Below, piece after piece: positions 3,100 through 60,937 of a DNA stretch of 64,000 nt. The stretch covers positions 96,001-160,000 of IMG/VR virus record IMGVR_UViG_3300014205_000003; one strand, 5' to 3'. Numbering within the stretch: position 1 is the stretch's first letter; every line of letters starts with the position of its first letter. The position numbers were made by a program, and so were the translations under genes. The DNA is from a virus. Taxonomy: Duplodnaviria; Caudoviricetes. Below the pieces are notes generated by a model. It was not told the origin of the DNA and did not search any database. It worked only from the letters and a program-made list of their open reading frames with translations.

Positions 3100-4218
3100 A
3101 TGATCGCATCTATTGCAGACTCACACATCGGTAAGTGTATTCGTAAAGGCATCGCAGAACTCGAGAAAGATGGAGCAGAAGCTCTTGGTCGAATGCTGGA
3201 TGCTATTCTAGTTAAAGCTCACGGCGAGCCTGTTCATCTCTTGGTTGCAGGAGACTCTGCAGATACTGTCTCTATCGACGGAGCAGGCATCCAAGGTCTA
3301 GTCAATCAGCTCAATGCTTTCGTAGACAAAGGAAACACTGTCTACTACATCCAAGGCAATCACGACAAGCAACGCTCCTCCATGCACTCTAAGCCAATCC
3401 TGGATAGTGTGCACAACAGTGTATATCTTCACAACAATCGAGTAGTCGTAGAAGGTAAAGTTATCAGAGGCCTTGACTATACGCCTCCTGAGAGTCTGAA
3501 GGAAGCTCTCAAGACCAAAGATGTCTCTTGCGATATTCTTGTCCTCCATGCAGCCTTCGAAGAAATCCTTCCATTTGCCAACGCGTTTGACTTGTCCTTT
3601 GAGGATGTTCCCAGTACTGTAGGAACGGTCATTGCAGGCGACATTCACACAGCTCGTAAATTGCAGTTGGTCGCTGGAGAGAATCGCTTCTTTGTGTCTC
3701 CTGGTGGCGTGCACAGCTGTGCAGTTGACCAGAAAGGTCCCTTTGGCTTCTGGACACTTGTGAAGGATGATTGGATCTTCACAGCTTGTCCTACAAGGGA
3801 GATTGTGGAAAGTGATTTGACTGAGATGGAAACTGTTGAGAGTCTTGGTGCGTTTATTCAACAACTTACCGACACTGCAAGAGCTCTTCCCAATCAAGCA
3901 AACTTGAAGCCTATTCTCAATCTCAAGTGGGACAGGAGTCGCTCTGATCTGTTCGACAAGTGTGTTGAAGTCTTGCAGAGTACTTATGTGATACTTGAGG
4001 AAGCGTATACCAGTAATGGAAAGGCTTTGGATGTCAAGGAGCTTCAGAGAGCTATGACAGACTTCAAAGCTACTACGATGGATGTGGCACTTCCGTTTGT
4101 GTGTGATGCGGCTCAGACGCCTCAAGTGTACAAGTTGCTTGAGCAGTGTTTAACAACTAAAGAGGCTCTTCCAGTTGTGGAGGGATTCATCAACATGGCA
4201 AAGGCAGGAACAATATGA
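3100..4218 (+). CDS. sbcD: SbcD/Mre11-like metallophosphoesterase nuclease
   Basis: Motifs IADSHIG, VAGDSAD, IQGNHD, AGDIH; near an SbcC gene. Confidence 0.85.
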   Translation: MIASIADSHIGKCIRKGIAELEKDGAEALGRMLDAILVKAHGEPVHLLVAGDSADTVSIDGAGIQGLVNQLNAFVDKGNTVYYIQGNHDKQRSSMHSKPILDSVHNSVYLHNNRVVVEGKVIRGLDYTPPESLKEALKTKDVSCDILVLHAAFEEILPFANAFDLSFEDVPSTVGTVIAGDIHTARKLQLVAGENRFFVSPGGVHSCAVDQKGPFGFWTLVKDDWIFTACPTREIVESDLTEMETVESLGAFIQQLTDTARALPNQANLKPILNLKWDRSRSDLFDKCVEVLQSTYVILEEAYTSNGKALDVKELQRAMTDFKATTMDVALPFVCDAAQTPQVYKLLEQCLTTKEALPVVEGFINMAKAGTI

Positions 4219-5157
4219 AAAACATGTTCAACGTCGAATGCGTGATTATGCAAAAGGATGGAGTAATTACTGAGCCTGCGGGTCTGGCTTGGGAAGAAAT
4301 CTACGAAGGTTTTGTTGCAGGTCCTTTTGAGTCTGACTGGCCGTACTATTTGTTTATCACTGTAACAGATATGCAGGATGCTTGTGGTGAGCCCGGATAC
4401 ATGGTTGAGATTCAAGCAGCTTCTCCTAAGGCTGCTGGAATGAAAAACCTGAAAAGTGCTGTAGAGAGTTGTGGAGAAGAGAACACAAACATCAAGAAGC
4501 TTACTCAGGTACAGCGTGCAGAACTGTTGAAGCAATATGGGATATCTGCGCATCTGTGGATCAAGTGGGACAAGTCTGCAAAAGACCCTGACAAGCTTGT
4601 GGAAGAAGCTAAGAAGGAAGCTACAGCAATTCCTATGATGTTCGGGTTCTACATGGATCGAGTTCAGAATCGAATTGGAAACACTGGTTGGGACTTCATC
4701 AAAGGGGATATTGGGTTCAAATGAAGTATAAAGTCGAAGTGATAGCAGATTCTTCTGGCAAGTGGGCAGGCAACGGTCTTACTTTTGACACTAAAGCAGA
4801 AGCTGAAGAGTACGCTAAGGATTTGATGTTCCGCTGGATACTTGTACGTGAATGGCGAGTCGTTGAAGTTCCCCCTAAAAAGGAAACTGTATGATTAGTG
4901 AAAAAACTCCTGTTGTATACAGGCTTGGCTACGAGCGCTGCGAGAATCATAAGGACGCGATGTGCTACTACAACACGAACAAGCACTCTCAGTGTCCGTT
5001 CTGTGCGGCTCAGACTATTATCAATCCTGACTTGGACAAGACAGGTGCTAAGAGTTTTGTGAAGAAGGCTATACGCTCTAAACGAAAGCACGATGATGGT
5101 CCGTATTTTGATGGTCTTTCAAAAGATATTGACTTTGACTCTGAGGAACTTGTCTGA
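4215..5157 (+). CDS. Three hypothetical proteins (4215..4724, 4721..4894, 4891..5157)
   Basis: Coupled ATGA overlaps; the last has CxxC motifs. Confidence 0.7.
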
Positions 5158-5312
5158 TGAACACACTTATCAAAGACCCTGTAGACATTAAGTGCTTGGA
5201 CATCTCAACAGCTCACATTACAGCTACAGACTCAAAGCTTCTGGAACAAGCCTGTGAAGAGGACAACCCAAGTCTGTCCGTATACGATTATAGTTACCAA
5301 CTAAGGAGCTAG
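5157..5312 (+). pseudogene. 5' fragment of a small protein (LDISTAHIT motif, DUF5983-like), truncated by TnpB cassette 1
   Basis: MNTLIKDPVDIKCLDISTAHITATDSKLLEQACEEDNPSLSVYDY then runs into the element end (AGTTACC) and stops; no 3' half on the other side. Confidence 0.6.
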
Positions 5313-5400
5313 TTGATTTGTCACGGAAGGGGGACTATAAGCTCCCCTCATCAGAATGTTTTTGGCTGCATTGAAGTCGGCATCCATCGTCACTCCACAA
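5290..5400 (-). ncRNA. Putative omegaRNA scaffold overlapping the tnpB 3' end; guide predicted to begin ~AATCGTATACGGACAGAC
   Basis: Hairpins GGGG-AGCTTATAGT-CCCC and CAACTA-GCTCCT-TAGTTG conserved in cassette 2; the 5' limit of the RNA is not determined. Confidence 0.55.
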
Positions 5401-6368
5401 GCAGTACAACAGAATGACTCTCCCTTTCGGGACAGTTTGTCTACCGCTCCGCACAAGCTACATGTCTGTGAAGAGTAAGCAGAGAAGACTTTCGTGTATC
5501 TAATGCCTTTTTCTTCACTGACTAGCTGAAGCCGACTCAAAACTTTTGAGTAGCTCCAGCGTTGCAACTTGTTCATGAATTGCTTGCTAATCTTGCCTTT
5601 AGAACCCTTCTTAACGTCTTTCAAATCTTCTACTACAAGCTCTTGAATATTGCGCAAGTCGAGAAGGTTTACCGATTGGTTGATCTTCTGATCCCGCTCT
5701 GTGAGAGCTTTCTTGAAGGCTTTAGACCCTTGTTTCTTCCTAGCTATTTTCTTGTAGACCTGTTCCATACCTACGTCGTAAATTTGCTTATCAGAAGAAG
5801 CAAGAAGTTTCTTATATCCGCAGTCAAGCCCTATAGAAGCTCCAGTAGCAGGGCTAGGAGATTCTTTCTCGAAAAAGATGTCAAGATACCACTTGCCATT
5901 TACTTTACGCAAGCAAGAAGACTTCTTAAGAGTCCAACCGTTCTGACTGAATTTAAGAAACTGCTTGTGACGTTTTGAAGGAATCTTAAGTACAATGTGG
6001 TTGCCAAGAGAGACCAATTTTATCCAAAAGTCAAAGGTGTTGTGTTCTGTATAGAATGTGCAGATTTTTTGATTTAGGCCAAACGTCTTTTGCGTGATCT
6101 TCGGCTTTGATGCTTTCTTCGTCTTGTTCTTTCTGGCTCTTGTTTTTTGAAGAATGCCAAAAGCTTGAACGAATAAACATCGACGTAAATCACAGCCTAG
6201 CCGAGTTTGAATCTTAGGAAGCTTGTCAAACTGTCTTGCGGAAGGATCGTTCCAAAAGTGATCTACGTAGAGCTGGAGAACCTTCAAAGCTTCGTTACCT
6301 ACAGTGTCGAGCTTCTGGAGCTTTCCAGTATTTGCAAAATTCAAGGACATTTGAACGGAACGAATCAC
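5301..6368 (-). CDS. tnpB: TnpB RNA-guided endonuclease
   Basis: RuvC motifs IGLDCG, VVEDL, DADFNAAKNI and Zn finger CSLCG...CTACG; all three catalytic acids intact. Confidence 0.92.
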   Translation of the reverse strand: MIRSVQMSLNFANTGKLQKLDTVGNEALKVLQLYVDHFWNDPSARQFDKLPKIQTRLGCDLRRCLFVQAFGILQKTRARKNKTKKASKPKITQKTFGLNQKICTFYTEHNTFDFWIKLVSLGNHIVLKIPSKRHKQFLKFSQNGWTLKKSSCLRKVNGKWYLDIFFEKESPSPATGASIGLDCGYKKLLASSDKQIYDVGMEQVYKKIARKKQGSKAFKKALTERDQKINQSVNLLDLRNIQELVVEDLKDVKKGSKGKISKQFMNKLQRWSYSKVLSRLQLVSEEKGIRYTKVFSAYSSQTCSLCGAVDKLSRKGESFCCTACGVTMDADFNAAKNILMRGAYSPPSVTNQLAP

Positions 6369-6532: not shown

Positions 6533-6582
6533 TGTAACCTAGCCTTTCTATTGAATACTAATATAGCATAAGGAGCAATCAA

Positions 6583-8625
6583 GTGATTCCACTCTATTTC
6601 CGCTTAAGGAACTTCTGTCAGCAGAAGGATACCAAAGTCGACTATCGCTTCGGCATTACAGGTCTCATTGGCAACAATGGACATGGTAAATCAAACCTCA
6701 TCGATGCAGGTCAGTTCTTTGCCTGGACAGGCCAAGTCGTCAAAGACAAGAAAGAAGACTATCTGACTTGGGGACAATCCTCAGGCTCTGCTCAAGTCCA
6801 ATTCCAAGACAACAATCGAACCTACACGCTTACTCGTAATCTTCACAACGCTGGATGTACTCTCAAGTGGACATCTGCTAGTGGAGACACAGGTGAAGAG
6901 AAAGGCATCAAAGTTGTCGACAAGATCCTCGAAGAAGACATCCTTGGAATGCCCTTCGAAGTCTTTCGAGAAGCTAAGTTCTGCGCTCAGACTTCCCTGA
7001 TCGAAATTCTCAACATGACTGCTTCCAAGCGTATGGAGTACTTCCAAAAACTTGCAGGTGTTCAACGTGCTGAACAAATAAGAGGACTTCTGCAGACTAA
7101 GTCCAATGAACTTCCCAACGTTATGGATGTGTCTGCAGACATCAAGTCCATTGAGGACTCTGTAGTAGTGGCAGAAGAGACTGTCAACAACGCTGGTGTA
7201 GCTCTGAAGGCTTGGATGGCTACTTTGCCTTCTGAGGGTGCTGTAGAAGCTTTGGGACGCATCAATCAGACTCTCAAGACTACTCGAACTGTTGATGAAG
7301 TGTCAGCAGATATTGTTAAGTGCATACGTATTGTTCAAGAAAACACTCAGCGCATTAAAGACCTCAATGTAGACACTGCTCTGGTTCCAGTCGATCCTCC
7401 GACGCCGGAAGAGACTCTGGCAGCACAGCATACAGGATTCATCACCGCTAATAACAAGAAGATCGAAGATTTGACTCTTCAAGCTTCTAAGATTGCTGTC
7501 TATCAGATTCTTTCCAAGCCGGATACCAAACAAGTAGAAGACTTCCGAGAACTGTTAGGTAAGCAGCGTCCACTGTATGAAAGTGCTAAGACAGGTAAAT
7601 GTGAAACCTGTAAGCGTCCCTTTGAGTTTCAGGAAGATCCCAAAGAGATTATCAAGCGCTTCGAGGAAGCTGAGAAGGTCTTTGCGCTGGCTTCTGCAGA
7701 ACTCAAGCGTCAGCAGAGTGATTATGAGAAGAACACTCAAGACATTGTAAGAGCTTCTACTTCCAAGTCTGGCCTGACTAGGCAGGTTGCGGAATTGGAA
7801 GCAGATAACACTCGGAGACAAGCTTCCATACCCTCAGGCTTTGCTTTAGCTATCTATGAGCAGAAAGTTGCTAAGTATCAGACTTGGCAGAGTCAACAGG
7901 CTCACTTGAACAGCGTTCAGAAGCAAGTCAAGGAATATGAGAAGGCTATCCTAAGTGCACAGATGTGCGCGGAACAGCTGAAGAAGGAGCCTGAGCTTAC
8001 CAAGGAAGACGTTGAGAAGTTGACTCAGGAGAAGATTCGGATCGAAGATGCCTTGAGTCAGATCTCAAGCATTCAAACAGCTCAAGTGTCTGCTCAAGCT
8101 CTCATTCTGAGCAGTAAGTCGCAGTTGGATAGGTTGAAGAAGCAGCAAGAGCAGTTTGTGTTGTATGGAAAGATTAGAGGATGGCTTGAATCGGCTAGGA
8201 CATATCTGCACAGGGATGTTCTGCCTAAATTCGTGATGAGTCGACTTTTGACAGGTATGAACTCATGCTTGTCGTACTACTTGGCTCGCTTCAACGCTCC
8301 GTACAATGCTCGAGTGGATGAGAACTTTCAGTTCAAGGTTCAGTTCAAGACTGGCCCTGAGGTGTCTGCTTCTCGACTGTCTGGTGGCGAGTCTGTAGCG
8401 CTTGTGGTGGCGTTTCGCTTCGCATTGGCTGAACTGCTAGGGAAATCCTTTCCACTATTGGTAATGGATGAGCCTACAGCTTGGCTAGATCAGGAGAAGA
8501 AGCAGGTGATGGTTGATGTATTGAAAACGGCTAAGGGATTTGCTGAGAAGGGTTCGTATGTGTTCGTAGTTACACATGATCACATTCTGCTTCCGGCAAT
8601 GACACGCACGATAGAGGTTGAATAG
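6583..8625 (+). CDS. sbcC: SbcC/Rad50-like ATPase
   Basis: Walker A GNNGHGKS, coiled coil with CETC zinc hook, LSGGE signature, MDEPT Walker B, VTHD. Confidence 0.92.
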   Translation: MIPLYFRLRNFCQQKDTKVDYRFGITGLIGNNGHGKSNLIDAGQFFAWTGQVVKDKKEDYLTWGQSSGSAQVQFQDNNRTYTLTRNLHNAGCTLKWTSASGDTGEEKGIKVVDKILEEDILGMPFEVFREAKFCAQTSLIEILNMTASKRMEYFQKLAGVQRAEQIRGLLQTKSNELPNVMDVSADIKSIEDSVVVAEETVNNAGVALKAWMATLPSEGAVEALGRINQTLKTTRTVDEVSADIVKCIRIVQENTQRIKDLNVDTALVPVDPPTPEETLAAQHTGFITANNKKIEDLTLQASKIAVYQILSKPDTKQVEDFRELLGKQRPLYESAKTGKCETCKRPFEFQEDPKEIIKRFEEAEKVFALASAELKRQQSDYEKNTQDIVRASTSKSGLTRQVAELEADNTRRQASIPSGFALAIYEQKVAKYQTWQSQQAHLNSVQKQVKEYEKAILSAQMCAEQLKKEPELTKEDVEKLTQEKIRIEDALSQISSIQTAQVSAQALILSSKSQLDRLKKQQEQFVLYGKIRGWLESARTYLHRDVLPKFVMSRLLTGMNSCLSYYLARFNAPYNARVDENFQFKVQFKTGPEVSASRLSGGESVALVVAFRFALAELLGKSFPLLVMDEPTAWLDQEKKQVMVDVLKTAKGFAEKGSYVFVVTHDHILLPAMTRTIEVE

Positions 8626-8627
8626 GT

Positions 8628-19277: not shown

Positions 19278-20503
19278 TCAATGAACTCCTTTTTCAAGCT
19301 CTCGTAGAAGCTGGTGTAGATCCTGAGATCGTTCGAGAGAATGACTCAGGGTCTTATAAAGTCGATACCATTCCCAGTGGCTTTCAGAAGGGTAAGAAGA
19401 AACTCGCTACAGCCTCAATGATCGACTGGGGTGAATGCATCAGCTTCAAATGTCCTATCTGCGAAGATCACACACGTCGAGCCTTCGTCTCCCACAGGTG
19501 GAATACTCGCCTCGGCAATGTTCAGTTCTCTGACAGACTCTATAAGTGTCACAACGAGGATTGTCAGAAGACTCGTGATATGTACAACTTCTTCAAAGGA
19601 CTCAAACTCCCTGAAGACTATTCCACCGTCTCTGTCAGTCAAGATCCTAAGAAGACTACTAAGGAAGTCAAGGATGCGCAGTTTCTAATCAAGACAGAAG
19701 AGCTTCCTTGGCCCTCTTACAATCTAAGTGATCCCAGAGGTCCCCAGGAGGTCGTTGACTACCTCCAAGCCCGAAATTTCGATATCACAGAGCTCGACAA
19801 GAATTTTGGAGTCCGTAGTGTTCCTGCAGGTGCTGAGTGGAAGTCTGAGACTAAGGTTACAACGTTCCCACAGCCTAGAGTACTAATTCCAGTCTTTCAG
19901 CACATGCACTTGATTGGCTGGCAAGCCAGAAGTATTGAAGCGGGTGTAAAGAAGTTCAAGTACTTGTTTCCTCCGGGTGCTCAGAAGCGTCAATGGCTCT
20001 ATAATTTCGACACAGCACTTCTCTATCCAGAGGTAATCATCTTTGAGGGTGTTACCAATGTTTGGAGAACTGGTCCAGATGCTATTGCTTGTTTTGGCAA
20101 GGGCATCAGTGCAGATCAGATGACTCTGATGAAGCTTGTATGGGGCTTCGACGGAACTGGTGTAATCTGCTTCGATGAAGATGTATACGAGAAGGACATT
20201 GACATACGATTGGCAGGACTTCTCAACTCACAGAGAGTGTTTCCCCTTGGGACAAGTGTTCTACGACTGCGAGGTGGTGATGCCGCAGTGCACACCTGTG
20301 CGCGGATTCGACAGTTGAAGCGTCTCGCACATAGTGTTGCTTCACTCGATGAAGAGGATATTCATGTGATTGACGAGGCGAATGTACCAGAACAAGAAAC
20401 AAGCTCATTGGACGCTCCTCGCTTCACTACAAAGGAATTGCCAAAGATGGTACTTTCTGCGGATGACGACGATGAGGACGACGTCTTTGGGCTGGAGGAA
20501 TAA
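19274..20503 (+). CDS. DNA primase (Zn-binding + TOPRIM)
   Basis: CPICED...CHNEDC zinc domain; GWQARS, KY, LYN, IFEGV, ICFDED. Confidence 0.85.
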   Translation: MINELLFQALVEAGVDPEIVRENDSGSYKVDTIPSGFQKGKKKLATASMIDWGECISFKCPICEDHTRRAFVSHRWNTRLGNVQFSDRLYKCHNEDCQKTRDMYNFFKGLKLPEDYSTVSVSQDPKKTTKEVKDAQFLIKTEELPWPSYNLSDPRGPQEVVDYLQARNFDITELDKNFGVRSVPAGAEWKSETKVTTFPQPRVLIPVFQHMHLIGWQARSIEAGVKKFKYLFPPGAQKRQWLYNFDTALLYPEVIIFEGVTNVWRTGPDAIACFGKGISADQMTLMKLVWGFDGTGVICFDEDVYEKDIDIRLAGLLNSQRVFPLGTSVLRLRGGDAAVHTCARIRQLKRLAHSVASLDEEDIHVIDEANVPEQETSSLDAPRFTTKELPKMVLSADDDDEDDVFGLEE

Positions 20504-32803: not shown

Positions 32804-32850
32804 TTCCTTTCAAACGCACATCTGTGCACTTTACCAGAAGGATTCTGTAG

Positions 32851-35131: not shown

Positions 35132-35676
35132 TTGATCTTGTAAAACTTCATCTAGGTTGTGGGAAGGTTATCCTTCCGGGCTTTGTAAACATGGATGCTA
35201 GACAGTTGGAAGGTGTAGACATTGTAACAGATGTCTTCACCTTGCCTACTGTTGAGAAGAACTCTGTAGACTTGATCTACGCATCTCATATCTTTGAGCA
35301 TGTTCCTCGACCAGACACGAAGAAGGTACTTACACGTTGGTATGATGTGCTGAAGCCTGGTGGAACTTTACGTCTGGCAGTTCCCAACTTCTTAGCAATT
35401 GTAGAGCAGTACAATGAGAAGAGTAACTTGAAAGAGTTGTTAGGATTGCTGTATGGACGTCAGGACTATCCCGGAAACGCACACATGTGCACTTATGACA
35501 TGTGGACTTTGCATGATCTGTTAGTGGAAGTAGGCTTTCCTCATCCGAGGAGATACGACTGGCATGACACAGAGCACGCAGATGTGGATGATTGTTCGCA
35601 AAGTTTTCTCCCGCATCTTGATAAGATCTACGGAAGACTGATGTCCCTAAACATGGAAGCAAGGAAACCTAAATGA
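35128..35676 (+). CDS. Class I SAM-dependent methyltransferase
   Basis: KLHLGCG, SHIFEH, VLKPGG.L..AVP. Confidence 0.85.
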   Translation: MIDLVKLHLGCGKVILPGFVNMDARQLEGVDIVTDVFTLPTVEKNSVDLIYASHIFEHVPRPDTKKVLTRWYDVLKPGGTLRLAVPNFLAIVEQYNEKSNLKELLGLLYGRQDYPGNAHMCTYDMWTLHDLLVEVGFPHPRRYDWHDTEHADVDDCSQSFLPHLDKIYGRLMSLNMEARKPK

Positions 35677-36355: not shown

Positions 36356-38344
36356 ATAGCGCTAAAGGAATGTCCATTACGATCTGGCATCCTGTAGATG
36401 GCTACTGGCATCAACTAATCCAGATCAGTAAAGGTAACACTCGCGAGTACTACACCAACGGTGTGCTAGAGCGCGTAGAGACTCTTAATCCTGACGGTAG
36501 TTTGAAGAAGTCTGTTGTTAAAGTCAAACCTGAAAACAAAGTAACCAAAAACAAAAAGAAAGACTCATCAAATGGCTAAGAAGAAAACCGAAGAGGTTTC
36601 AATCATCCCCCAGGAACGTGTTGAGATTATGTTCGACGCAGCTGTGGAAACGTTTCTCCCTCACACTGCAGTTGAGATGACTGCAGCGCTTCCTACAGAT
36701 CGTGCTGGCTGTATGAAGCTCCTGATCTGCAACAGTGTCTCTGCTTGTCGCTACAACAGTATGCGCAAGTGGCACATTGGTCGCATCATCAGTGAACTCG
36801 ATGCCCGTGGTGAAGAGAAGGTGATGGAAGAAGCCGCTAAGCTTACTGGCTATAAGACTCGTGAGCTTCAGCACAGCATCAAGCTGTATAAGGACTATCC
36901 GAATGTCTTGGATGTCATCAACCTTGCCTCTGTGGGCTTGGAGATGATTCAGTTCAAGCAGCTTGGAACTATTCGTAATCCAGAGTCGCGCAAGCAGCTG
37001 ACTGAGAAAGTCCTTGAGGGCAAGCTCAGCAAAGATGATTTGGCTAAGTCTGTGGACTCAGTCGTAGCTAAAGAAAAAGCTGCGAAGAAGTCTGAGAAAG
37101 ATGCCGAAGCTGATCCTGATGCTCCTCCTGCAGAAGAGGAAGTTCCGAAGCCCAACTACAAGAGCTTGTATGCTCGCACCGAAGAGCTGATGCTTCTGTT
37201 CATCAAGAACCTGCAGAACTACGAGAAAGAGCACACGGACATGTTGGAGTGGATCGGTGACCCTCAGCGTGTTCCTGCAGAAGAGTTCGATGCTGCTATG
37301 GCGATCTTCGAGGACAAGGTTGAGAAGCCGATGGAGAAGGCTCTGAAGGAACTCAACGCTACTGTCAAAGTGCTGAAGACGAAGGCTGATGAACAGGTTG
37401 AGCGTGGAAAGGTTGCTACAGCAGCGGCTAAGAAAGGGTAAGTACAGATGATAAAAGGACGTGCTTGGTTCTCTGCAGATGATCCTATCTGTCCTGGTGG
37501 AGTAGCTTCTTACGTGAAGACGAACAGTCTTGTCTATCAAGACTTGATTGAAGCTAATCTGTTAGGTGTCAAGTGGGGTTTTACAGAACTGCAGCAAGCT
37601 TGGGACGTCCTTGCGGAGTACACGAAGGATACTGCTCACAATGCGGTATCCTCGTGGCTCTGCAACTTTACAGGACGTGAGCTCTTACAAGAAGATCTGC
37701 AGAACCTAGCGGATACGTTTACAGGATGGCTTCCAGAGTTCTCTCAAGGATACACATTCAACAAGTGGACTGGTGGATGTGGTGTGTGGGCTTTTCTGCA
37801 CATCACTGACTGCAAGCTCTATCCAGACTTCGAACGACGTTACCAGATCACTACAAAGGTTATGAGCGGTCCTGCTTCAGGTCTTATTACACATCAGCAA
37901 ATCTCTCGCAAGTTCTCTTACAGAATGCTTCATCTGCTTGGACTTCCTTATCCTCCGTATGGTGAGGAAGGAATCGATCCTCTGAATCTTGGTGACTTGT
38001 GGATGATTGCTTGGCTGGTTCCTACTCCTAAGGGAATCTCAGTAGACAACATCTCTGCAAGTCCTACGATCAAGAAGCACAACGTCAATATTGTAGAGAG
38101 GCGTAAGGGTAAGTGTACTGGACCTGCGCGAATAGCTACTGGATGCACAGTGTTGTGTCCTGTCGGACGAAAGCTCTGTAGTTGTAGTACACATACGCAG
38201 GATTATCCAATTGCCAACTGCAAGAATGTAGTAACTCCTCACAGGGGCTACATAGCAAATGAAGGATGGTGTTCTAAATGCTTGAGAGAAGGCAGATTCC
38301 TATCCAAGAAGGATGTGTACAATGATCGCGGTGCCGGGAGGTAA
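36352..38344 (+). CDS. Three hypothetical proteins (36352..36579, 36572..37441 helical, 37448..38344 with a Cys-rich C-terminus)
   Basis: Long coupled ORFs. Confidence 0.7.
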
Positions 38345-38776: not shown

Positions 38777-41700
38777 GTGTCTGAAACAACGATTGTGTGG
38801 AAAGCTCCTAGGCCTATTGGAAGTAACGGAATGGAACTTCCAGCGGGTTCTGGCATTCCCGTAATGAGGCCGCGTTTGAAAAGCAAATGCTATCGCAGAG
38901 ATATGATTGCGCTTTTGGAGGAGGTTCAGGATGATCTGGCAAGGGCTTTATGTTCTTCTAGTTTCTGTGATGGCCCTATGCGTCCTGGACACATGTGCCC
39001 TAAATGTCAAGCAATACGAAAAGTCGGAACAGTTCTTGCAACATTGAAATCACAACTGTAAGGAAAACAAGTATGACTCAAACAATCGGTGAACTCGCAA
39101 ACAAACCCAAGACGATCTTCGGTGTCTCCAAAGGTGAACAAGAGTTCGTCTTCATGCGTGACTTCTACAATCTCTTGGACATCCTGCAGAAGACTGCCTT
39201 GACTACTTCTTGGCTTGCCATTGAAGAAGATCACAAGGACAAGCAGGACGAACTCGACAAGGCCAACAAGTACTTGACGAAGGTTGGAGCTGTTGGTAAG
39301 TCGATCTTTGCCTTGGGCTCTTCGAAGCGTCCAGAAGCTTGTCATGCTCTTCGAGACTTGATGGTGGAAGCTGAAGCAGATCCAATAAAGGCTAAGTGCT
39401 TTGGTACATATGCTGTAGCGTTCCTGCAGGCAACTCTGAGTATGCCTTTGCTGATTCCAGAGTTTGGTAAGGCTTTGAGTGACAATCTGGATGACGATGT
39501 CCGCATGCACTCAATGTTGCTTACAGGGCTCGAGCAGCTTGGGGATGATGACCGTCGAAAGATGGTAAGTGCTTTGACAGCTTGCGGAGTGTTCAGCAGC
39601 AGTTTCAATGTAACAGCTATCAAGCGGACGCTTCCTGCAGATGTGAAGAAGCTGATGGAAGACTTGGATGGTAAGAAAGACGAACCTAGTGTTTGAGAAA
39701 GCTCCTCCCTATAAAGGAAAAGTTACGCTGTACTCTCAAGACTGCTGTCACGTTATCCAAACGTTTGAGGTTGGTGAGGCGCAATACTACAACGCGTTTG
39801 GGAATTGTGCATTCTTCAAGGATCTGGCCCTTCACCCTATTATGGAAACAAGTCTTCCGTTCACCCTTGAGGAAGATGCTGACCAGCACGGCTATCGAGG
39901 TATGGGTTATATCGATTACTCCACAGAAGCTCCTAAGGGTGAGGTGAAGATCTTACGTAATGATGGAACAATTCTACTACAGTGTATACACTTAGGTTGT
40001 CACCAGCACTACGGCTTGTGGGAGATTCACAAGGAAGATGGAAGTGTCATCAGAACAAATATGGGAGTGATTCTTACTCCTCTCAAGAAAGACAAAGATG
40101 AAACCTAAACCTGTTGCAGGTCAGCAGATCTTCAACTTGCCTTGCGGCAATGTTGCCAGAGGCCTGAAAGACGAAGACCGAAAGCTTGTTCCCTTTACTG
40201 TCACAAAGGTAGGCAACAAGTACTTCTGGGCAACTGACAGCCGTTTCGTACAGATCGTAGACGGCAAACCACAATGTGGTTGCAGAACTACCAAGTTTGA
40301 CATCCAGACTTGGTACGAGGTCTCTGAATACAGTCCGTGTCACCAGCTCTACGAAACTGAACAGTTGTGGAAAGATGATCAAGAGCGTTCAAGACTCTGG
40401 ACGAAGATCAAAGACCTAACAGATTACTACACCTGTAAGTCTTCTTGTTACTCGCTGGAGACACTTCGTGCAGTTGTAGATCTATTGATCACTGACAGAC
40501 AGAAAGAACAACAAAATGCTTCTGCTTAATCGCATATGCTCTATCCTTGACAAGCAGCCAGCTAATACTGTCTTTGCGCAGTGGGATGGCGCCGTCTACA
40601 AGGATGAAGATGAGCTTGTTCGCTATGATAAGTTCTTCCTCATGATCGTCAGGAAGCTGAAAGGCAAGTACATCTTTCAGAAGATTCCTGCATGCTTGGG
40701 TAAGCTTCCAAATAATGAAGCGTATATCCATTACACAGATGTACCGCTGGTACGTGTATTGAATGGTAAGCGCAAAGACAAGTGTTATGCTGCCGATGGC
40801 TCGTTCATGGAAGACGAGAAGACTGAAGTAGCAGGAATCTGGAAAGAGCTTGAGTACGGACAGAAGGGTTGGTTCTTCTCTAGGAAGTACGCTCCTGACC
40901 TCTATTATCTTGACATCATCGAAGGAATTGAGACTGAAGGGTATGTTCCGTGGAAAGTACCTACTTGGTACATCACAGGCAAGGACACTCCAGAATTCGA
41001 GTTGTTTGTTAGAAAAAGTGCTTCTGTTTTTCTAAATCGATTCCGTCGAGATAATGAGAATGCTTGGCAGACATTCAGTCGAGTAAAAGCATCGTTGAGT
41101 GTAGATGCTGGTACAGACAGTTATGGAAATGCTCGAATCGGCTATCCCTTCAGTTTGGTGTATGGGCGTGGAGTGAAGGCTGCAGATCCTATATCTTGCG
41201 GCTTCTGGATGAAGAGTACAGTTGCAGAGATGACTCGAGAGTTGCCTGCGATGCACATAACACTGGAGGAGGATAAGTGAGTAAAGCTGAATTGGAAAAG
41301 CAAGTGAAACTGATGGACGCGATTCTGGAGAACTACGAAGGTCGCATCAGTACATTGGAAGTCTTGAACGCTGATCTGACTCGACGTGTTGAAGATCTTT
41401 CAATTGACGTGGAAGAGCTTCGTGTGGTTAATCAGAAAACAACAACAACTAAGAGGGCTTGGTAAATGGAATCACTTGAAAAGAAGGTAGAGCTTCTGCA
41501 AGAGATGATTGTTCGACTTCACGAACAAGATATGCAGTTGGTGCGAGATCTTGGAAAAGCCATTAAGAACCAAAGTGTTCTAGCTCAACAAGTAAATGAC
41601 CTTGCAGGTATGTGCACACAACTTGCTATGCATATGAGGAAAGACTAATGCCTTTCACACAGCAAAACATTCCTGCAGAGTTGTTCTTGTCCTACAAAGG

Positions 41701-44390: not shown

Positions 44391-44418
44391 ACGCACAGAT
44401 GTGCACAAAGGAGATTAG

Positions 44419-51288: not shown

Positions 51289-51322
51289 ACCTTTCTTTCC
51301 CTATCAGCAAATAAGGAATCTC

Positions 51323-51862
51323 ATGTCCGTTTCAAGTATGCCTGAGTACAAATCTCTCTTTGATCTATCTCAGCAGTCAATCTCCTCAAAGTGCACATCT
51401 GTGCACTCTCTCCCCACAACCTTCAAGAAAGTTCTCTGGGCTCCGCACAGCTGGAACCTTGACTTAGGTGGTGGTCAGTACGAAGATGCTTCTATCTATC
51501 TGCAGAAACGTTTTGTATCCAACTTTGTATATGATCCGTTTAACAGGTCGGATGAACACAACGAACGCATTCGAGCATACATCATAAGTAGTTCGTTTGA
51601 TACAGTAACATGTTGTAATGTTTTGAACGTTATTAAGGAAGCAAAGATTCGACATACAGTCATAGAACAGGCGTACAAAGCATTGAAGCTCGGAGGGGTA
51701 GCCTACTTTCAGATCTATGAGGGAGACCGCTCTCAGAGGCAAGGAAAGACTTCTAAGGGCTATCAGTTGAACTGGTGGACGTCTTCTTATGTATCAGAAA
51801 TCACTAAGGTCTTTCACGGACTATGTAATGAGTACGCTAATACTCTAGTAGTAAGGAAATAA
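51323..51862 (+). CDS. Class I SAM-dependent methyltransferase
   Basis: NLDLGGG, VYDPFNR, DTVTCCNVLNVI, AYFQIYEGD. Confidence 0.8.
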   Translation: MSVSSMPEYKSLFDLSQQSISSKCTSVHSLPTTFKKVLWAPHSWNLDLGGGQYEDASIYLQKRFVSNFVYDPFNRSDEHNERIRAYIISSSFDTVTCCNVLNVIKEAKIRHTVIEQAYKALKLGGVAYFQIYEGDRSQRQGKTSKGYQLNWWTSSYVSEITKVFHGLCNEYANTLVVRK

Positions 51863-53410: not shown

Positions 53411-53430
53411 ATGCTTAGATTTCAGTAACT

Positions 53431-53709: not shown

Positions 53710-53711
53710 GT

Positions 53712-54566: not shown

Positions 54567-54567
54567 C

Positions 54568-55689: not shown

Positions 55690-55705
55690 CTGAAAGGACT
55701 TACAC

Positions 55706-56599
55706 ATGTCTTATATGCACGTGGACAACCTTTATAAGAACCAGACCGTTATGCTTTTCAAGCAGTGTTACGCTATGGAGAAGATTCATGGCACATCTGC
55801 TCACATCTCTTGGAAGGCTGGTAAAGTCTCCTTCTTTGCAGGAGGAGCTTCTCACTTAGCATTCGTAAAGCTCTTCAACATTGAAGATTTGACTGCAAAG
55901 TTCACAGAGTTCTTTGGTATCGAGAAAGACGTTACGATCTTTGGTGAAGCTTATGGTGGGAGTATGCAGGCTATGTCAGCCACATACGGAAAGGTTCTGA
56001 AGTTCGTGGCTTTTGAGATCGGTGTTGGAGAACATTGTTTTCTCAATGTAAAAGACGCTCACGAACTTGTCTTGAAGATGGGACTTGAGTTTGTAGACTA
56101 CGCAATCATCGACTGTACAGTTGAAGCTCTTGACAGAGAGATGATGAGAGATTCAGTTCAAGCTGTAAGGAATGGTTGTGGAGAAGGGCATAAGCGTGAA
56201 GGAGTTGTTCTCCGTCCGCTTGTGGAAATGCGAACCAGCAATGGTGCGAGAGTTATCTCGAAGCACAAGAGAGCTGACTTCCAACCTGAACGCAAAAATC
56301 AACCTTCTCTTGCAGATCCTGAGAAGCAAGCAGTTTTGACAGAGGCTTCAGAGATTGCGGATGAGTGGGTTACTCCTGGACGACTGGAACATGTCTTGGA
56401 TAAACTGTTTGTCAACAATACGGCACCTGACATCACGCGTATGAAGGATGTGCTTGCAGCAATGGTTGAGGATGTTGTACGAGAAGCTGAGAGTGAGATT
56501 GTAGACAGTAAAGAAGTGCGTTCAGCTATTTCACGTAAGACTGCACAACTGTTCAAATCGAAACTTGAACACAGCTTGAAGGACACAGGAACTGTATGA
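55706..56599 (+). CDS. RNA ligase (Rnl2-like nucleotidyltransferase)
   Basis: MEKIHGT, IFGEAYG, FVAFEI, REGVVLRP, ISKHK. Confidence 0.8.
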   Translation: MSYMHVDNLYKNQTVMLFKQCYAMEKIHGTSAHISWKAGKVSFFAGGASHLAFVKLFNIEDLTAKFTEFFGIEKDVTIFGEAYGGSMQAMSATYGKVLKFVAFEIGVGEHCFLNVKDAHELVLKMGLEFVDYAIIDCTVEALDREMMRDSVQAVRNGCGEGHKREGVVLRPLVEMRTSNGARVISKHKRADFQPERKNQPSLADPEKQAVLTEASEIADEWVTPGRLEHVLDKLFVNNTAPDITRMKDVLAAMVEDVVREAESEIVDSKEVRSAISRKTAQLFKSKLEHSLKDTGTV

Positions 56600-58660
56600 A
56601 GACGTACATCTTTCGCAAGATGTTTACGGACTTGTACTACATGGTGGATGCTCGGGGCATTCCGCACACTACAGGGAACATTGAGATGGCTCTTGTGTTC
56701 CCCAGCGATGTATACAAGGAGCCTTCTGCTAGTGAGTACCTTCAGGAAGATGTTCCTTGTCTGCGAGAGCTGATTGAAAAAGAGTTGTCTCCGATGAATG
56801 AGAGTATGAGGTACAAGTGGAATCACATTTGGGGATCTAAGTGGCTTACAGAACCGGAAGCTGATGAAGTCTCCTTTGAGACAGCTCTGCAGTGTGTTGA
56901 ATACGCCTTGCAGGATAATCTGGAAGTAGTCTTAGAGAAGAATGATGATTCCGGCGAGATGATGTGGCATGTCGTTGTACATGACAGTGAAAAGTACAAA
57001 GATCCGTTCACCTCAGGCTTCTGGATGTGTTCGTATCTGACTAAGAAGGAAGCTGTCAGTGTCTGTGATGTCATGAAGTGGAAGATTATGAAATGAGCAA
57101 ACTCAAACACAGTGAAGACGACTATCCAGCTTGGATCTGTATGAGTTGTGGATGGAAGCTGGGCAAAGCGCCTAGTGAGAAAGCTATTTGTACATTTCAC
57201 AACGGTACGTGTGATGTGTGTAAGACTGAGTGTGCTGTAACAGAACCTAGGGACTTCGGTCACCTTAAGAACAATTGGAGAGAACTGAAGAATGCGTAAA
57301 GACTTGAAGGCGTACCGAATGGTTGCAAACGCTCTTGCGCGTAGTGAAGATACTTGCGTGGCAGCGGAAGCTATTCGAGAGTTGCTGGAAGAGCTGCACA
57401 AGGAGTACATGTTTGTTGATGCCTTGAAGCGGACTGTAGAAGCTCGTATTGACTGCTACCACAAGAGCGTGGCTCTTAAACAACTCTTGGACGAACATGA
57501 CTAACTACAACAAGTACCATCAGCTGATTGATCAAGGCCGATTGGGGTATGTTACGCCAGATGATCTCACAGCGGCTTGTTCCCAGCTCCTCGAGCAGTT
57601 GATCAAAGCTGAGAACTGCCTTGTCTCAATTGGCAAGTACTGTCAAGACGATATGCCTCCAGATAGTGACGATGCTCGTAATATTCTGCGGAGGGTGGAC
57701 ACGTATGACTGACTACAAAGAGTATCAAGCAGCTCTTGACGATTACTTGGAAGATGAATTTGTAAGTGCTCGAAACGTTCTGAGCAAATATGTAGATCTT
57801 CTTGACCAGTTGAAGTATGCGGAGAAGACGCTTGCAGACATTCGTGAGTATATCGAAAATGATGTGCGTAATGGTGACAGTCTAACTGCTTACGACATTC
57901 TGCAGAAGATCAAAACATATGAACAATGATATAGCTCAAGCAATTACAGACGCTTCCTTTATTGCTGACGCTCTATCCAAGAATCATATGTCCAGCAGCG
58001 GCGACCAAATTCGAATACTGGTTACTGAGGTGCAAAGACTTCAGAAATGCTCAGAAGTACTTATAGACACGATCCACATTCTCTCCGACAGACTAGAAAG
58101 TGCTGAGAAGACACTTGCAGACATCAAGCAGGATTGTGAGAGTTGTGCAGAGTGCGATGACGTAGATCTCATTGTAGAATCCGTTCCTAAAAGGATACAG
58201 GCGTATGAAGAAAACCAAAAGCAAAAAGTCTGACAAGTGGATCTTGGAAGTTACTACAGAGCAAGCTTACTTGATTCAGCAAGCTGTCGAGCACATGGCG
58301 AGAATCCTTGCAGGTCAGCTCTCTGAAGTTCGAAGTGCTGTAGTTTTTCGTCCAAGGAAAGTAGAGAATGTGGAAGAACTCGCAGACTATCCAGACAACG
58401 AGAAGATTGACAAAGCTCTGCACGACTTGAAAGCTTCTCTCTTTCCAGAGCTTCATCCCAATGCTTCCTATGGAGTAGGCTCTAAAGAGTGTCATCCAGA
58501 CTGTCACAGATATTGGGACTTGTATCAGATAATTCGCAGACCTCTGTTTCTGGATCGCACTAAAGATACTGCAAAAGAGGATTCATATAGTGTTCTTGGC
58601 AACTCATTCATGCAAACCTCTGACCTTCCTCCAGCTCTCTTCAAGAAACTTGAACAATAA
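56596..58660 (+). CDS. Run of seven hypothetical proteins, including related helical ORFs at 57497, 57705 and 57919 (AEKTLADI motif)
   Basis: Contiguous coupled ORFs. Confidence 0.65.
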
Positions 58661-58701
58661 CTGTACTTGATTCAATAACAGCAACCTAAAGGATAACACA
58701 C

Positions 58702-60937
58702 ATGCTACTCAACGCGGCTCGTACTACTGTTTGGAACTGGGACAATGTCACTTCTTCACTCTGCCCTGACTGCGGCGAAAAGCTTATGGCTCGTCGCTGT
58801 GAAGACAAGATCTGGCACTGGGCTCATTACCCTCTCCCTAAAGGTGCAACCCCTCGTGCATGTCATGCAGAAGAGACTGCTTGGCGCTTGCAGTGGAAGT
58901 TTGCACAGATGTGCAATGATGGCTGGGAGATCGAGAAGCGTGTAGAGCTTGAAGGTAAGATTACTGTTTTGGATGCTTACAATGCTGAACAGAATCAAGT
59001 AACTATCTTCGTTCACAGCACTTCACCTAAGTCCCTCGAACGATTCGAACGTCTCAAGCGCAGTTCCTACAACTGCTACTGGATCAACTAAGGTCCCTTT
59101 GTCTGGTAACAGGCATTGAAAAGAAAGTGAATTGCTGGGACACCTAAAGTGCACATCTGTGCGCCATGGCAATCAGCAGCCGACCTCTTAATAGACCCTA
59201 GTGGCCTCTAAGAGAAGGTTCAACGACTAGTCCGTAAGGACGTAGGGTCAAGCGGCCCGAAGCACTCTCTCCTGAGCAATTAGGAGAATGATATAGCCTT
59301 TGCCACAGTGAAAATTGTGGGAGTCCTGATTAACCATCAGCAAACCGGCAGTACTTAGCGAGTACTGTTGAAAACAACTATACGAAGTAGAAATTTCGTT
59401 TTGTTTCTCAAGTAGTTTACAAATTCTGATTTGATGTATTATAATAATCCATATGCAGCGTTCACATAAAATTCGATTAGATCCTACAGTCAAGCAAGAA
59501 GTCGCAATGCGACAAGCTGCTGGAACTGCGAGATTTACTTGGAATTACGCGCTGGCTATGTGGAAAAAGCAATACGACGATTTTAAGCTAGGGCTGGCGA
59601 CTAAACCAGATGTCTACAGTATCTCCAGACGTTGGACACAAGAAAAACCAGATTGGGCTCGAGAAGTTGCATGCGGTCTTCAGAACCGTGCAATTATGAC
59701 TCTCGGAAAAGCTATGATCAGTTTTTGGAACGGGAAGACAAATTTCCCGAAATTCCATAAGAAGTCTGACAAGTCTTCTTTCTATGTGGCTAATAGTCAT
59801 GGTTATATCAAAGATGGCCGGATACACATTACGAATGTTGGAAAAGTAAAACTAGCAGAAGCTCCCCGTTTTGAGGGGCGAACGCTGTGTTATACTGTTT
59901 CTCATTCTGCAGGTAAATGGTTTGTGTCTGTTCAAGTAGAATTGACAGAACCTATTGTACCTAATCCGTCCTTGTCTGTAGTTGGTGTAGACGTCGGGAT
60001 TAAGAACATTGCAGTTGCAAGCGATGGCACTTCGTTGCCAAATCCTCATTTTCTTATCAAGCAACAACGACAGTTGAAATACTATCAACGTCAATTAGCG
60101 CGACAAGTAAAAGGATCAAATCGCCGCAATGCAACGAAAACCCGTATTGCAAAGATCCATCAGAAGATTGTAAATCAACGTCAGGACTGTGTCCACAAGT
60201 TCACTACAGCTCTTGCCAAAAACCACGGCACTGCAGTGATCGAAACACTGGACATCGAGAGTATGAAAAGTTCAGACAAGGTCTGGATGAATCGTGCTCT
60301 CCAAGACACCTGCATGCGCGAGGTCCACAGGCAACTGGAGTACAAGATGAGGGAGCTCGTAAAAGCTCCTAAGTTCTTCCCCAGCTCCAAGACCTGCTCG
60401 TCATGTGGAGATGTCAAAGAGTCCTTGCCACCCTCTATTAGGGTGTACAGATGTCAGTGTGGCTTAGAGATCGACCGCGATCTCAACGCTGCACTGAACT
60501 TGAGAAACAGGAGTTGGGTAACAACTTCTACATGCGTGGAGACCTCTAAAGGGTCTACGAAGCGCAAAACGAAACTCGTTGCCGCTAGGTAACGAACCTC
60601 GTATTACAGCTATGACGGAAAGGCCCTTGGCTCTGCTCGTACACGTCGATGCATGTGGGATGATACGTTGAAGAAGTACATGTTGTATCAACGCATGTTG
60701 AAGCCTGCTGCTATGGGTCTCTACAAGGCTACAGGAGGCGCTGTACATCGCTATGAGGGTCTGTACCACTGTAAGGACGTGAATCCCTATTATGGCTATG
60801 GAAAGGTTCGTGACATTACTCGTTGGACAGCGTTGGAAGGTCCGTTGACGCAGAAGGCTTTGGAGAACTTCCACAGTGCTCTGAGTCTGATGAACTTCCT
60901 TCGCAGGGATGATGAAAAGCCGCAGGTGAGTCCTTGA
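58702..60937 (+). CDS. CoiA-like putative nuclease, spliced join(58702..59084,60610..60937), 236 aa
   Basis: CPDCG...WHWAH...C..EETAW N-terminus; splicing gives YNCYWI|YDGKALGS in frame. Confidence 0.75.
59085..60609 (+). mobile_element. Group I intron carrying tnpB (IStron-like, no tnpA)
   Basis: P1 GGAU|C/GGUCC with U-G at the splice site; core GAATTGCTGGGA, AATCAGCAG, CAACGACTA, GATATAGCC; terminal G 60609; in-frame exon join. Confidence 0.88.
59453..60592 (+). CDS. tnpB: TnpB (IS605 OrfB type with N-terminal HTH)
   Basis: HKIRLDP...AGTARFTWN; VGVDVG, VIETL, SSKTCSSCG, DRDLNAALNL. Confidence 0.93.
   Translation: MQRSHKIRLDPTVKQEVAMRQAAGTARFTWNYALAMWKKQYDDFKLGLATKPDVYSISRRWTQEKPDWAREVACGLQNRAIMTLGKAMISFWNGKTNFPKFHKKSDKSSFYVANSHGYIKDGRIHITNVGKVKLAEAPRFEGRTLCYTVSHSAGKWFVSVQVELTEPIVPNPSLSVVGVDVGIKNIAVASDGTSLPNPHFLIKQQRQLKYYQRQLARQVKGSNRRNATKTRIAKIHQKIVNQRQDCVHKFTTALAKNHGTAVIETLDIESMKSSDKVWMNRALQDTCMREVHRQLEYKMRELVKAPKFFPSSKTCSSCGDVKESLPPSIRVYRCQCGLEIDRDLNAALNLRNRSWVTTSTCVETSKGSTKRKTKLVAAR

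Follow-up and report, generated by a model that had tools for sequence, protein, structure and literature searches.

What keeps one short palindrome at many places in a large phage genome, inside genes as well as between them, and what reads it? The window, a 64,000-nt stretch of the complete 188,069-bp genome of an uncultured phage from a landfill metagenome, holds nine exact copies of GCACA-NN-TGTGC, all of them where an earlier note on this DNA had placed them (cores starting at 3711, 7957, 20290, 32816, 35479, 44393, 51393, 58903 and 59151). As 16-bp sites, these copies are:

3709–3724, unstranded: copy in the gene resembling sbcD (Metallophos), read as VHSCA; limited to the core, flanks weak
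7955–7970, + strand: copy in the SbcC-like gene, read as SAQMCAE; 3' extension GCGCGGAA
20288–20303, + strand: copy in the primase-like gene, read as VHTCAR; extension GCGCGGAT
32814–32829, unstranded: intergenic copy, with the stop of a 465-aa gene 65 nt upstream and the next start 24 nt downstream
35477–35492, unstranded: copy in the SAM-methyltransferase gene, read as NAHMCT
44391–44406, unstranded: intergenic copy adjoining a TGA stop, 14 nt before the ATG of a 481-aa gene
51391–51406, unstranded: copy in the methyltransferase-like gene, read as KCTSVH; alone among the 16-mers in being fully symmetric, GTGCACA-TC-TGTGCAC
58901–58916, unstranded: copy in the CoiA_N-like exon, read as FAQMCN; flanks weak (TT..AA)
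59149–59164, + strand: copy in a group I intron (RF00028 match), within the terminal loop of a helix

The dispersed palindrome is real. Dinucleotide shuffles of the window gave 0.13 copies on average and never more than 2 (observed, 9), and the whole genome contains 28 exact copies, compared with 0.17–0.29 expected under Markov models of orders 1–6. To respect the encoded proteins, we also shuffled synonymous codons in all ORFs, which yielded 1.29 copies on average and at most 5; the ORFs in fact hold 16. The palindrome is enriched over both kinds of null, and the comparison on which the earlier note had staked it therefore leaves it standing. Genome-wide, GCACA-NN-TGTGC is by far the highest-ranking 5-N-5 palindrome and also the top 12–16-mer. 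It is strict as well: a PWM scan left a score gap below the 28 exact copies, the core being all-or-none, and one-mismatch copies, represented in the window by the one already pointed out at 38987 and a second at 56543, are no commoner than chance.

The sites are spread along the entire chromosome, as had been proposed, at one copy per ~7 kb across the 188-kb genome, and more evenly than random placement would leave them (P about 0.001), with a spacing CV of 0.58 (0.95 for random placement, P = 0.0014) and a largest inter-site gap of 14 kb (26 kb for random placement, P = 0.001). Their extended pattern is (A-rich)-RY-GCACA-NN-TGTGC-RY-(T-rich), with arms that are invariant in sequence and never covary. 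The idea that the flanks extend the symmetry survives in part: the R–Y positions are real, but the flanks are mostly not symmetric, the two halves being unlike at 22 of the 28 sites, with GTGCACA on one side and RCGCACA on the other (binomial P = 0.004). Among the 56 half-sites, 28 are TGCAC (T-type) and 28 are CGCAC; Watson-Crick pairing at the flanking position occurs at only 6 of 28 sites and is disfavoured, and the central dinucleotide is biased to TC/GA (19 of 28 copies).

About half of the copies occupy the short stretch that separates a stop codon from the ribosome site following it. These intergenic copies lie 0–25 nt past the stop codon, with an A-run before the palindrome and a T-run after it, and they occur in both orientations; several have 27–29 identical bases in common. 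The remaining copies are in genes, in frames 0, 1 and 2, together with the one in the group I intron loop. We confirmed the translations VHSCA, SAQMCA and KCTSVH, and the use of all three frames, with the codon-shuffle excess in ORFs, bears out the view that selection acts on the DNA rather than on the protein. In all eight coding copies with a GCGCGGAA-type extension, the extension follows the core on its 3' side along the + strand. The intron (59075–59320) matches RF00028 with 44.4 bits and an E of 3e-10, short of the gathering score of 50, and the terminal loop holding its copy is extended by 8 inserted nt compared with the Rfam model; as a single case, this is consistent with resident elements acquiring the site. 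None of the ~15 promoter-like TATATTAG elements checked contains a palindrome copy, and at genome copy 20364 a TTGACA begins 5 nt downstream. The earlier note had set the motif apart from a classical operator, a distinction that may be too sharp: about half of the copies are beside ribosome-binding sites and one is beside this promoter-like TTGACA, so a KorB-like or operator-like regulatory role may apply.

Conservation was examined in L010, the only close relative (61–66% identical), which keeps the core at three of four orthologous positions. The sbcD-like copy (3709–3724) is kept in L010 (286), but within a conserved protein stretch. The SbcC-like copy (7955–7970) persists there (2421) as an island, ILSAQxC, in a coiled coil that has otherwise diverged with no indel, and another conserved copy is intergenic, directly past the orthologous stop codon and amid diverged flanking DNA. 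The primase copy (20288–20303) is absent from L010, where a 7-aa patch reads THTRERV rather than VHTCARI between conserved flanks, again with no indel. All three L010 sites are T-type. In the distant relative L210, the gap matching 32814–32829 holds an ordinary hairpin that lacks GCACA-NN-TGTGC, and no repeated palindrome was found in 14 kb of L210.

A dimeric binder, as suggested before, remains in our judgement the most economical reader of such a palindrome. We found one protein with a predicted ParB-type fold, and no canonical ParB, the CTPase domain being absent:

36572–37441, + strand: P0125, candidate reader, a 289-aa all-helical protein (predicted fold and homodimer)

The AlphaFold2 model of P0125 (pLDDT 91.4) comprises short helices or disorder in residues 1–57, a region at about residues 58–170 that resembles the DNA-binding domain of ParB, Noc and KorB, and long helices in residues 196–288 that make up the predicted homodimer interface. 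With VIA-align, the best 15 matches are all Noc, ParB, Spo0J or KorB DNA-binding domains at Z 7.1–9.7, although for helical folds a Z below about 13 may reflect a common arrangement; the rmsd is 2.6–3.9 Å over 95–104 residues, except for 6s6h_B (5.1 Å over 119 residues). The best 14 Foldseek matches all belong to the ParB family, and the top ESM Atlas cluster is 'DUF1016/ParB HTH' (score 0.96). In sequence, a six-frame HTH_ParB match to P0125 has an E of 0.004 and 14.7 bits, under the cut-off of 22.6, and was not recovered in the per-protein Pfam scan. The homodimer model scored 0.80 (best of 3 controls, 0.00), a mark reached by 20 of 30 proteins solved as one-chain pairs and 1 of 23 solved single-chain, and across runs the contacts agree by at least 89% with a partner pLDDT of at least 82. 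A six-frame search of the whole genome gave no candidate for the CTPase domain ParB_N (PF02195), and among 283 ORFs we found no other DNA-binding family besides the HTH_17 ORFs of TnpB cassettes and a sigma factor. No ParA-type ATPase (PF01656 or PF13614) stood among the families listed.

Our leading, if tentative, interpretation is that the array consists of double-stranded DNA docking sites for a protein with two-fold symmetry, the likeliest being P0125. A P0125 homodimer, each subunit bearing a ParB/Noc/KorB-type helix-turn-helix and no CTPase domain, would dock on each site, much as KorB does on OB, Noc on NBS and ParB on parS, and from these positions it would mark the phage chromosome, organise it or regulate it globally; at the many sites that follow a stop codon and precede a ribosome-binding site, it might roadblock or insulate transcription. 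The segregation, condensation, packaging and self-marking roles put forward in the earlier note are likewise conjectural. The assignment of P0125 as reader is drawn from models, and its fold is the sole link between the protein and the palindrome. Several observations stand against it. L210 encodes a P0125 homologue (31% identical) yet has no repeated palindrome in the 14 kb searched, and an unrelated phage, G061, has nearly the same palindrome and no detectable P0125 homologue. A homodimer also leaves unexplained both the unlike halves at most sites and the uniform 3' placement of the extension in the eight coding copies, and the bias at the centre also counts against this interpretation.

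Other accounts of the motif start from the same features. The setting of the intergenic copies, just past stop codons and between an A-run and a T-run, and the long identities among several of them would suit an RNA or single-stranded DNA hairpin (one that weakly terminates or attenuates transcription, stabilises mRNA ends or is a site of processing) or a REP-like short mobile palindrome spread by copying, but the T-run is missing from the coding copies, the sbcC and primase copies show no indel relative to L010 that would mark an insertion, and a selfish element is not expected to space evenly. One orientation folds at −6 to −11 kcal/mol and is then followed by UUUUCU; against this, 8 of the 13 intergenic copies are oriented such that the transcript (+ strand) retains no more than a 4-bp stem, at −5.1 kcal/mol. 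The unlike halves pair G·U on one strand only, the coding copies favour the mRNA-pairing orientation by 9:1 (Fisher P = 0.03), the intron copy makes a loop-extending hairpin, and a Phage_ProQ_C-like protein is encoded (window 40098–40529), all in keeping with a folded transcript, but the invariant arms without covariation and the disfavoured pairing at the flank are not, and we consider a hairpin or REP-like element improbable. As RNA the palindrome forms weak hairpins (−5 to −11 kcal/mol), and about 10 strong ordinary terminators of varied sequence (−17 to −25 kcal/mol) are present elsewhere in the genome. We rejected an intrinsic terminator: most copies fold at −5 to −9 kcal/mol, and neither the coding copies nor the 4-bp intergenic stems fit one. 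Even less probable, in our view, is that the motif is the site of a nickase, homing-type endonuclease, recombinase or DNA-modifying enzyme acting at regular points of the chromosome, like the fixed nicks of T5-like phages. Ten core bases that are all-or-none, with no one-mismatch excess, are more typical of enzyme sites than of operators, and serine recombinase crossover sites have a layout like these 10-bp arms round a biased 2-bp centre, but the genome search revealed no domain of a resolvase or a tyrosine recombinase. The genome has HNH and endonuclease VII genes along with several of methyltransferase fold; the methyltransferases have small-molecule-type folds, and no candidate enzyme is tied to the site.

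A host protein is a further candidate reader. G061, a 77-kb siphovirus-like contig, carries 10 copies of GTGCACACGTGTGCAC, nearly the same palindrome, and has no detectable protein in common with the 188-kb phage, and neither a P0125 homologue nor a ParB domain was detected in the 74% of the G061 genome searched. Because G061 carries these copies without a common protein, a host reader explains them more easily, and one G061 site adjoins a TTGACA −35 box. The T-type half-sites, TGCAC-ANNT-GTGCA, fit TGCNC-N4-GNGCA, the putative LexA box of F. succinogenes (reportedly described by Mazon et al. in 2004) and other FCB-group bacteria, which may not be the box of this phage's host. On this basis the sites could be host LexA (SOS) boxes of the Fibrobacter/FCB type, with host LexA coating and silencing the incoming phage genome until DNA damage, or with the replicating phage titrating LexA and so turning on host SOS genes. 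The three T-type sites of L010 and the landfill origin of the sample agree with such a host, but the lexA genes examined (from the phylum of G002 and the class of G003) go with other boxes, 28 of the 56 half-sites have C where the LexA consensus has T, and the sites do not overlie promoters but follow stop codons or lie within genes, with no copy in any of the promoter-like elements. No integrase, repressor, LexA, HTH_3/XRE-type or S24 gene was found in the phage genome, and titration does not need even spacing; on balance, we think LexA boxes unlikely. It is likewise rather unlikely that unrelated phages of one host group each wrote an evenly spaced lattice of the host LexA operator, and equally so that LexA serves in it as a genome-wide silencer released by DNA damage or the phage as a LexA sponge. 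The examples of such a lattice would be the 188-kb phage, which has its own RNA polymerase and no lysogeny genes, and G061.

Dispersed strict palindromes have already been described in a few phages (for example Cluster O), with no function assigned. This phage adds a statistically even array, imposed strongly enough to alter protein sequence and the loop of an intron, its conservation across about 35–40% protein divergence, and a concrete candidate reader, a predicted dimer with the ParB DNA-binding domain only. Should P0125 be the reader, large virulent phages would possess a relative of the KorB and Noc systems, without the CTP clamp, for marking their chromosomes or controlling them globally; should it be host LexA, a phage without lysogeny genes would be coupled to the SOS response in a new way. 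With either reader, the palindrome would provide a sequence tag for assigning uncultured phages to a host or lineage.

Among known systems, the array resembles KorB-OB of the IncP plasmid RK2, Noc-NBS and ParB-parS, in which 13–16-bp palindromes are scattered, also inside genes, and are read by a dimer with an HTH DNA-binding domain of the type predicted for P0125. KorB, Noc and ParB have an N-terminal CTPase (ParB_N) that makes sliding clamps, whereas P0125 has none; the palindrome is unrelated in sequence to parS, NBS or OB, and the replicon here is a phage without sign of lysogeny. The putative FCB LexA box, 14 bp long and palindromic, agrees in its specified bases with TGCAC-ANNT-GTGCA and would fit all three L010 sites and half of the half-sites here. 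An SOS regulon has a few dozen boxes overlapping promoters in a genome of several Mb, whereas here 0.19 Mb holds 28 sites, most of which follow stop codons or lie within genes. Dozens of dispersed copies are also seen in the L5 gp71 stoperators of Cluster A mycobacteriophages and the inverted repeats of the Streptomyces phage phiC31, each the site of one repressor and located mainly in the short spaces between genes. A stoperator lacks symmetry and is aligned with the direction of transcription, whereas the core here is palindromic and the intergenic copies point both ways; the stoperator and phiC31 phages are temperate with a known repressor, whereas no integrase, XRE-type (HTH_3) or S24 repressor was found here, and we rejected an L5-type stoperator on these grounds. 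In Cluster O mycobacteriophages, 70-kb Mycobacterium siphoviruses, a 17-bp dyad repeat, TGTTCGG-NNN-CCGAACA, has >30 strict copies (about 14 in the short spaces between genes, and about 10 each within genes and close to gene starts) that are denser at one genome end, with an asymmetric centre that follows no clear orientation rule, and a dimeric regulator was proposed (Cresawn et al. 2015, PMC4351075). Like the phage studied here, they carry tens of strict copies of one dyad, phage-wide, in intergenic and coding DNA, but our array differs in sequence and spacer, is significantly even along the 188 kb, has mostly unlike halves and comes with a candidate reader of predicted ParB fold.

The GCACA-NN-TGTGC palindromes form a genuine array that is evenly spread, conserved and selected at the level of DNA. 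The palindrome occurs nine times in the window, each copy where the earlier note had placed it, compared with an average of 0.13 in dinucleotide shuffles, and 28 times in the whole genome, against 0.17–0.29 expected from Markov chains of orders 1–6. ORFs hold 16 copies, compared with a mean of 1.29 and a maximum of 5 when synonymous codons were shuffled within every ORF. These nulls bear out the enrichment proposed earlier and rule out chance, codon usage or amino-acid composition as the origin of the motif, which is the commonest 5-N-5 palindrome of the genome, four-fold ahead, and the source of its most frequent 12- to 16-mers. In a position-weight scan, the 28 exact cores were followed by a wide score gap; the one-mismatch copy reported at 38987 is present, but such copies are no commoner than chance. 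The sites are also more even than random (coefficient of variation of the gaps 0.58 vs. 0.95, P = 0.0014), with a largest gap of 14 kb against 26 kb expected (P = 0.001), and strand polarity along the genome, from hand-counted runs of site orientations, showed no significant departure (9 runs vs. about 11.6 expected).

The full unit spans ~22 bp and comprises an A-run, R-Y, GCACA, two central bases, TGTGC, R-Y and a T-run. The R-Y flanks pointed out in the earlier note are present but mostly do not extend the symmetry. At 22 of the 28 sites the two halves are unlike, GTGCACA being paired with RCGCACA (P = 0.004), and 19 of 28 have TC or GA at the centre, neither being a feature of a simple symmetric site. 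About 13 copies are intergenic; these occur in both orientations, start 0–25 nt past a stop codon, end 14–38 nt before the next start and usually sit directly ahead of the ribosome-binding site. Eight coding copies carry GCGCGGAA or a close variant in place of the T-run, always on the + strand and 3' of the core. Seven of these are in + strand ORFs and occupy frames 0, 1 and 2, in agreement with the original observation that all three frames are used, and the eighth (genome 88827) is in a crudely called minus-strand ORF; the remaining coding copies have the core with weaker flanks. The copy at 59151 does lie in an intron loop: it is within a group I intron (RF00028, 44.4 bits, E 3e-10, just below the gathering score) and fills a terminal loop 8 nt longer than in the model. 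Outside the window, at genome 6866–7026, two same-orientation copies flank a 149-nt spacer with internal inverted repeats (TGCAAACT...AGTTTGCA and TGCAAA-GAAG-TTTGCA) and no ORF; the spacer could be a small RNA gene or control region.

Conservation was assessed in the one close relative found, represented by two Logan contigs, L010 and L105, from a single run (SRR24319152, also the source of L210). SbcC in L010 is 66% identical, and the core is kept at the orthologous sbcD and sbcC positions, the latter giving a conserved island, ILSAQxC, within an otherwise diverged coiled coil. In L105, whose exonuclease is 61% identical, an intergenic copy still follows the orthologous stop codon directly, in DNA that is otherwise diverged. 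The primase site is missing from L010, where a 7-residue patch reads THTRERV instead of VHTCARI between conserved flanks, with 14 base changes in 24 nt (window 20275–20310 vs. L010 8785–8820); the absence of an indel indicates that sites arise by substitution under selection, not insertion. The results support the earlier note's argument that selection acts on the DNA. The distant relative L210 (31–56% identity, syntenic with window 24–50 kb) has neither a copy nor any other repeated palindrome in the 14 kb examined. No close relative turned up in the phage collection by megablast or tblastn, nor anything related in IMG/VR with an 18-mer, a degenerate 22-mer or SbcC as query; the 22-mer had 0 matches among JGI metagenomes, and a search for homologues of a 418-aa gene bracketed by two copies found none. 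The 22-mer pattern gave 92 scattered single matches in GTDB genomes, terminator-like in character, and no genome with a family of the extended motif.

The record is complete (CheckV completeness 100%, direct terminal repeats), a single contig of 188,069 bp with a G+C content of 45.7%, of which the window is bases 96001–160000; a landfill metagenome, the probable source, is the only sequencing run found to contain the phage, and no RNA run is listed for it. Genome 1–62 and 188008–188069 repeat each other, with the same hairpin-forming sequence at either contig end, consistent with an assembly that is terminally redundant or circularly closed; the records also include a 188,015-bp version. Nearly all genes are on the + strand, and they include multisubunit RNA polymerase subunits of the jumbo-phage kind and, in the window, SbcCD-like, RecA-like, class II ribonucleotide reductase and family A DNA polymerase genes. 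Several TnpB cassettes are present, each with a 55-aa HTH_17/MerR-like ORF; the ESM Atlas neighbours of TnpB are viral and so give no clue to the host. Phage ORFs match at least eight glycosyltransferase families, a set that may serve DNA or virion modification. The genome also encodes a dATP/dGTP diphosphohydrolase N-domain protein (MazZ-like) and an HD-domain protein, and an Adenylsucc_synt search did not find PurZ. Rfam and tRNA scans found one tRNA-Gly and nothing at the palindrome sites. Two further proteins had family matches, the sigma-70 protein being unexpected alongside a phage multisubunit RNA polymerase.

Further phage proteins matched in family searches
Window 40098–40529: Phage_ProQ_C-like protein (E 1.8e-15)
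Genome 84507–85223: sigma-70 region 3 protein, sigma-70-like (E 1.5e-6)

Several identities for the motif were rejected. As a phage terminator it would form weak RNA hairpins (−5 to −11 kcal/mol), and most intergenic copies are oriented so that the transcript keeps only four base pairs; conventional strong terminators number about ten in the genome and vary in sequence. A structure-only element is contradicted by arms that never covary and by Watson-Crick pairing at the flanking position that is rarer than chance. Nor is the palindrome the promoter-like element gcTATATTAGta, whose roughly 15 occurrences, TnpB cassettes included, have zero overlaps with it.

Occurrences of the promoter-like element gcTATATTAGta
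Genome 10464, 44845, 51729, 51756, 56304, 63875, 80864, 109655, 122091, 147900: + strand
Genome 143660, 102565, 89279, 51657: − strand
Window 13655, 26091, 51900 (+ strand) and 6565, 47660 (− strand): those in the window, in window positions

This element is almost confined to intergenic DNA, including the HTH-TnpB cassette promoters, is often preceded by a TTGACA-like box at a distance of about 17 nt and is similar to the AT-rich early promoters of phiKZ-like phages. A second repeat family, with 5–9 copies genome-wide (e.g., ACAATGCTACTGTC and GCCAACAACAATGCTAC), is unrelated to the palindrome and may belong to TnpB element ends.

The most economical mechanism, and a probable one, is the docking of a two-fold symmetric DNA-binding protein, much as the earlier note had proposed for a dimeric protein acting genome-wide. 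Among 283 ORFs, Pfam scans detected no DNA-binding family other than HTH_17 in the cassette ORFs and that of the sigma factor. We rejected the HTH_17 proteins as readers because the cassettes contain no site and no other evidence connects these proteins with the palindrome; the site-keeping contigs of the relative, which are part of its genome, show no TnpB cassette. A six-frame HTH_ParB search gave a single weak match (E 0.004, 14.7 bits), in the ORF of P0125, a 289-aa protein (window 36572–37441, + strand) that adjoins a 'DUF1016/ParB HTH' cluster in the ESM Atlas, has mostly ParB or Spo0J structural neighbours and has 43 homologue clusters. AlphaFold2 with an alignment of these homologues gave a confident all-helical model (pLDDT 91.4, pTM 0.67), for which Foldseek ranked ParB, Noc, SopB, Spo0J and VirB first, at weak E-values throughout. 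In VIA-align, the top 15 rows, which cover model residues 58–170, were all Noc, ParB, Spo0J or KorB DNA-binding domains (rmsd 2.6–3.9 Å over about 100 residues, one row 5.1 Å over 119 residues) at Z 7.1–9.7; for helical proteins, Z below about 13 can reflect a common arrangement. The P0125 homodimer model passed, scoring 0.80 compared with 0.00 for the best of 3 controls, a mark that 20 of 30 proteins solved as one-chain pairs attained, as did 1 of 23 solved as single chains; its runs showed at least 89% contact agreement and partner pLDDT of at least 82, with the predicted interface along the long C-terminal helices. On the earlier note's question of a ParB or HTH gene, there is a weak match and a ParB-family fold in the model, but the ParB_N CTPase domain was absent from the phage genome in a family search, as were Phage_integrase, Resolvase, Adenylsucc_synt and DUF1016_N. 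With its putative ParB DNA-binding domain and coiled coil, P0125 is the best single candidate reader, if a tentative one; a search for a homologue together with a lattice found no lattice in the 14 kb of L210.

We rank P0125 ahead of host LexA, an unlikely reader. The LexA box of Fibrobacter succinogenes, which Mazon et al. are said to have described in 2004, is reportedly TGCNC-N4-GNGCA. The T-type core TGCAC-ANNT-GTGCA would fit this box. Against LexA stand the positions of the sites, their C-type halves (CGCAC in place of TGCAC) and the lack of a lysogeny module, a six-frame search of the phage having found no integrase, resolvase, XRE-type repressor (HTH_3), LexA (LexA_DNA_bind) or Peptidase_S24. 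Boxes upstream of lexA differ from the palindrome in both groups examined: TTCG-N7-TTCG-like direct repeats in the phylum of G002 (loci L107–L120) and GTTCACTAT...ATAGTGAAC palindromes in the class of G003 (loci L121–L140), each probably the LexA box of its group. When IMG/VR was scanned for AAGTGCACANNTGTGC, 65 single matches at chance level came up, from which G061 (IMGVR_UViG_3300034152_000419) stands apart. This contig (76.8 kb, G+C 49.6%, 74% complete), whose gene content suggests a siphovirus, has 10 copies of the perfect palindrome GTGCACACGTGTGCAC spread along its length.

Copies of GTGCACACGTGTGCAC in G061
3892, 11928, 13444, 18038, 26068, 28875, 38336, 44978, 68457, 74332

About six or seven are intergenic; one directly adjoins a TTGACA box, and another separates a stop codon from a ribosome-binding site. 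G061 has no detectable protein in common with the phage and no ParB_N or HTH_ParB match in the 74% of its genome searched, which weakens P0125 as a universal reader and favours a host-encoded one; the likeness may also be a coincidence among many phage lineages with palindrome arrays, since G061 was chosen by the motif itself. In a 14-kb high-GC viral fragment, G064 (locus L195), GCACA-NN-TGTGC occurs at 1827, 2083 and 2104, two of these copies forming an inverted pair with 9 bp between them. Two ParB_N genes (3856–4134 and 4773–5012) follow about 2 kb downstream, and the copies look like a parS-like cluster that uses the same arms.

Neither P0125 nor LexA explains why the halves are unlike, why the centre is biased or why coding copies have a polar extension. 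These features keep strand-specific explanations in play beside the docking of a symmetric protein, namely a hairpin in RNA or ssDNA, or the site of an enzyme. The closest published parallel to the array is the 17-bp repeat of Cluster O mycobacteriophages, whose function is likewise unassigned (PMC4351075).
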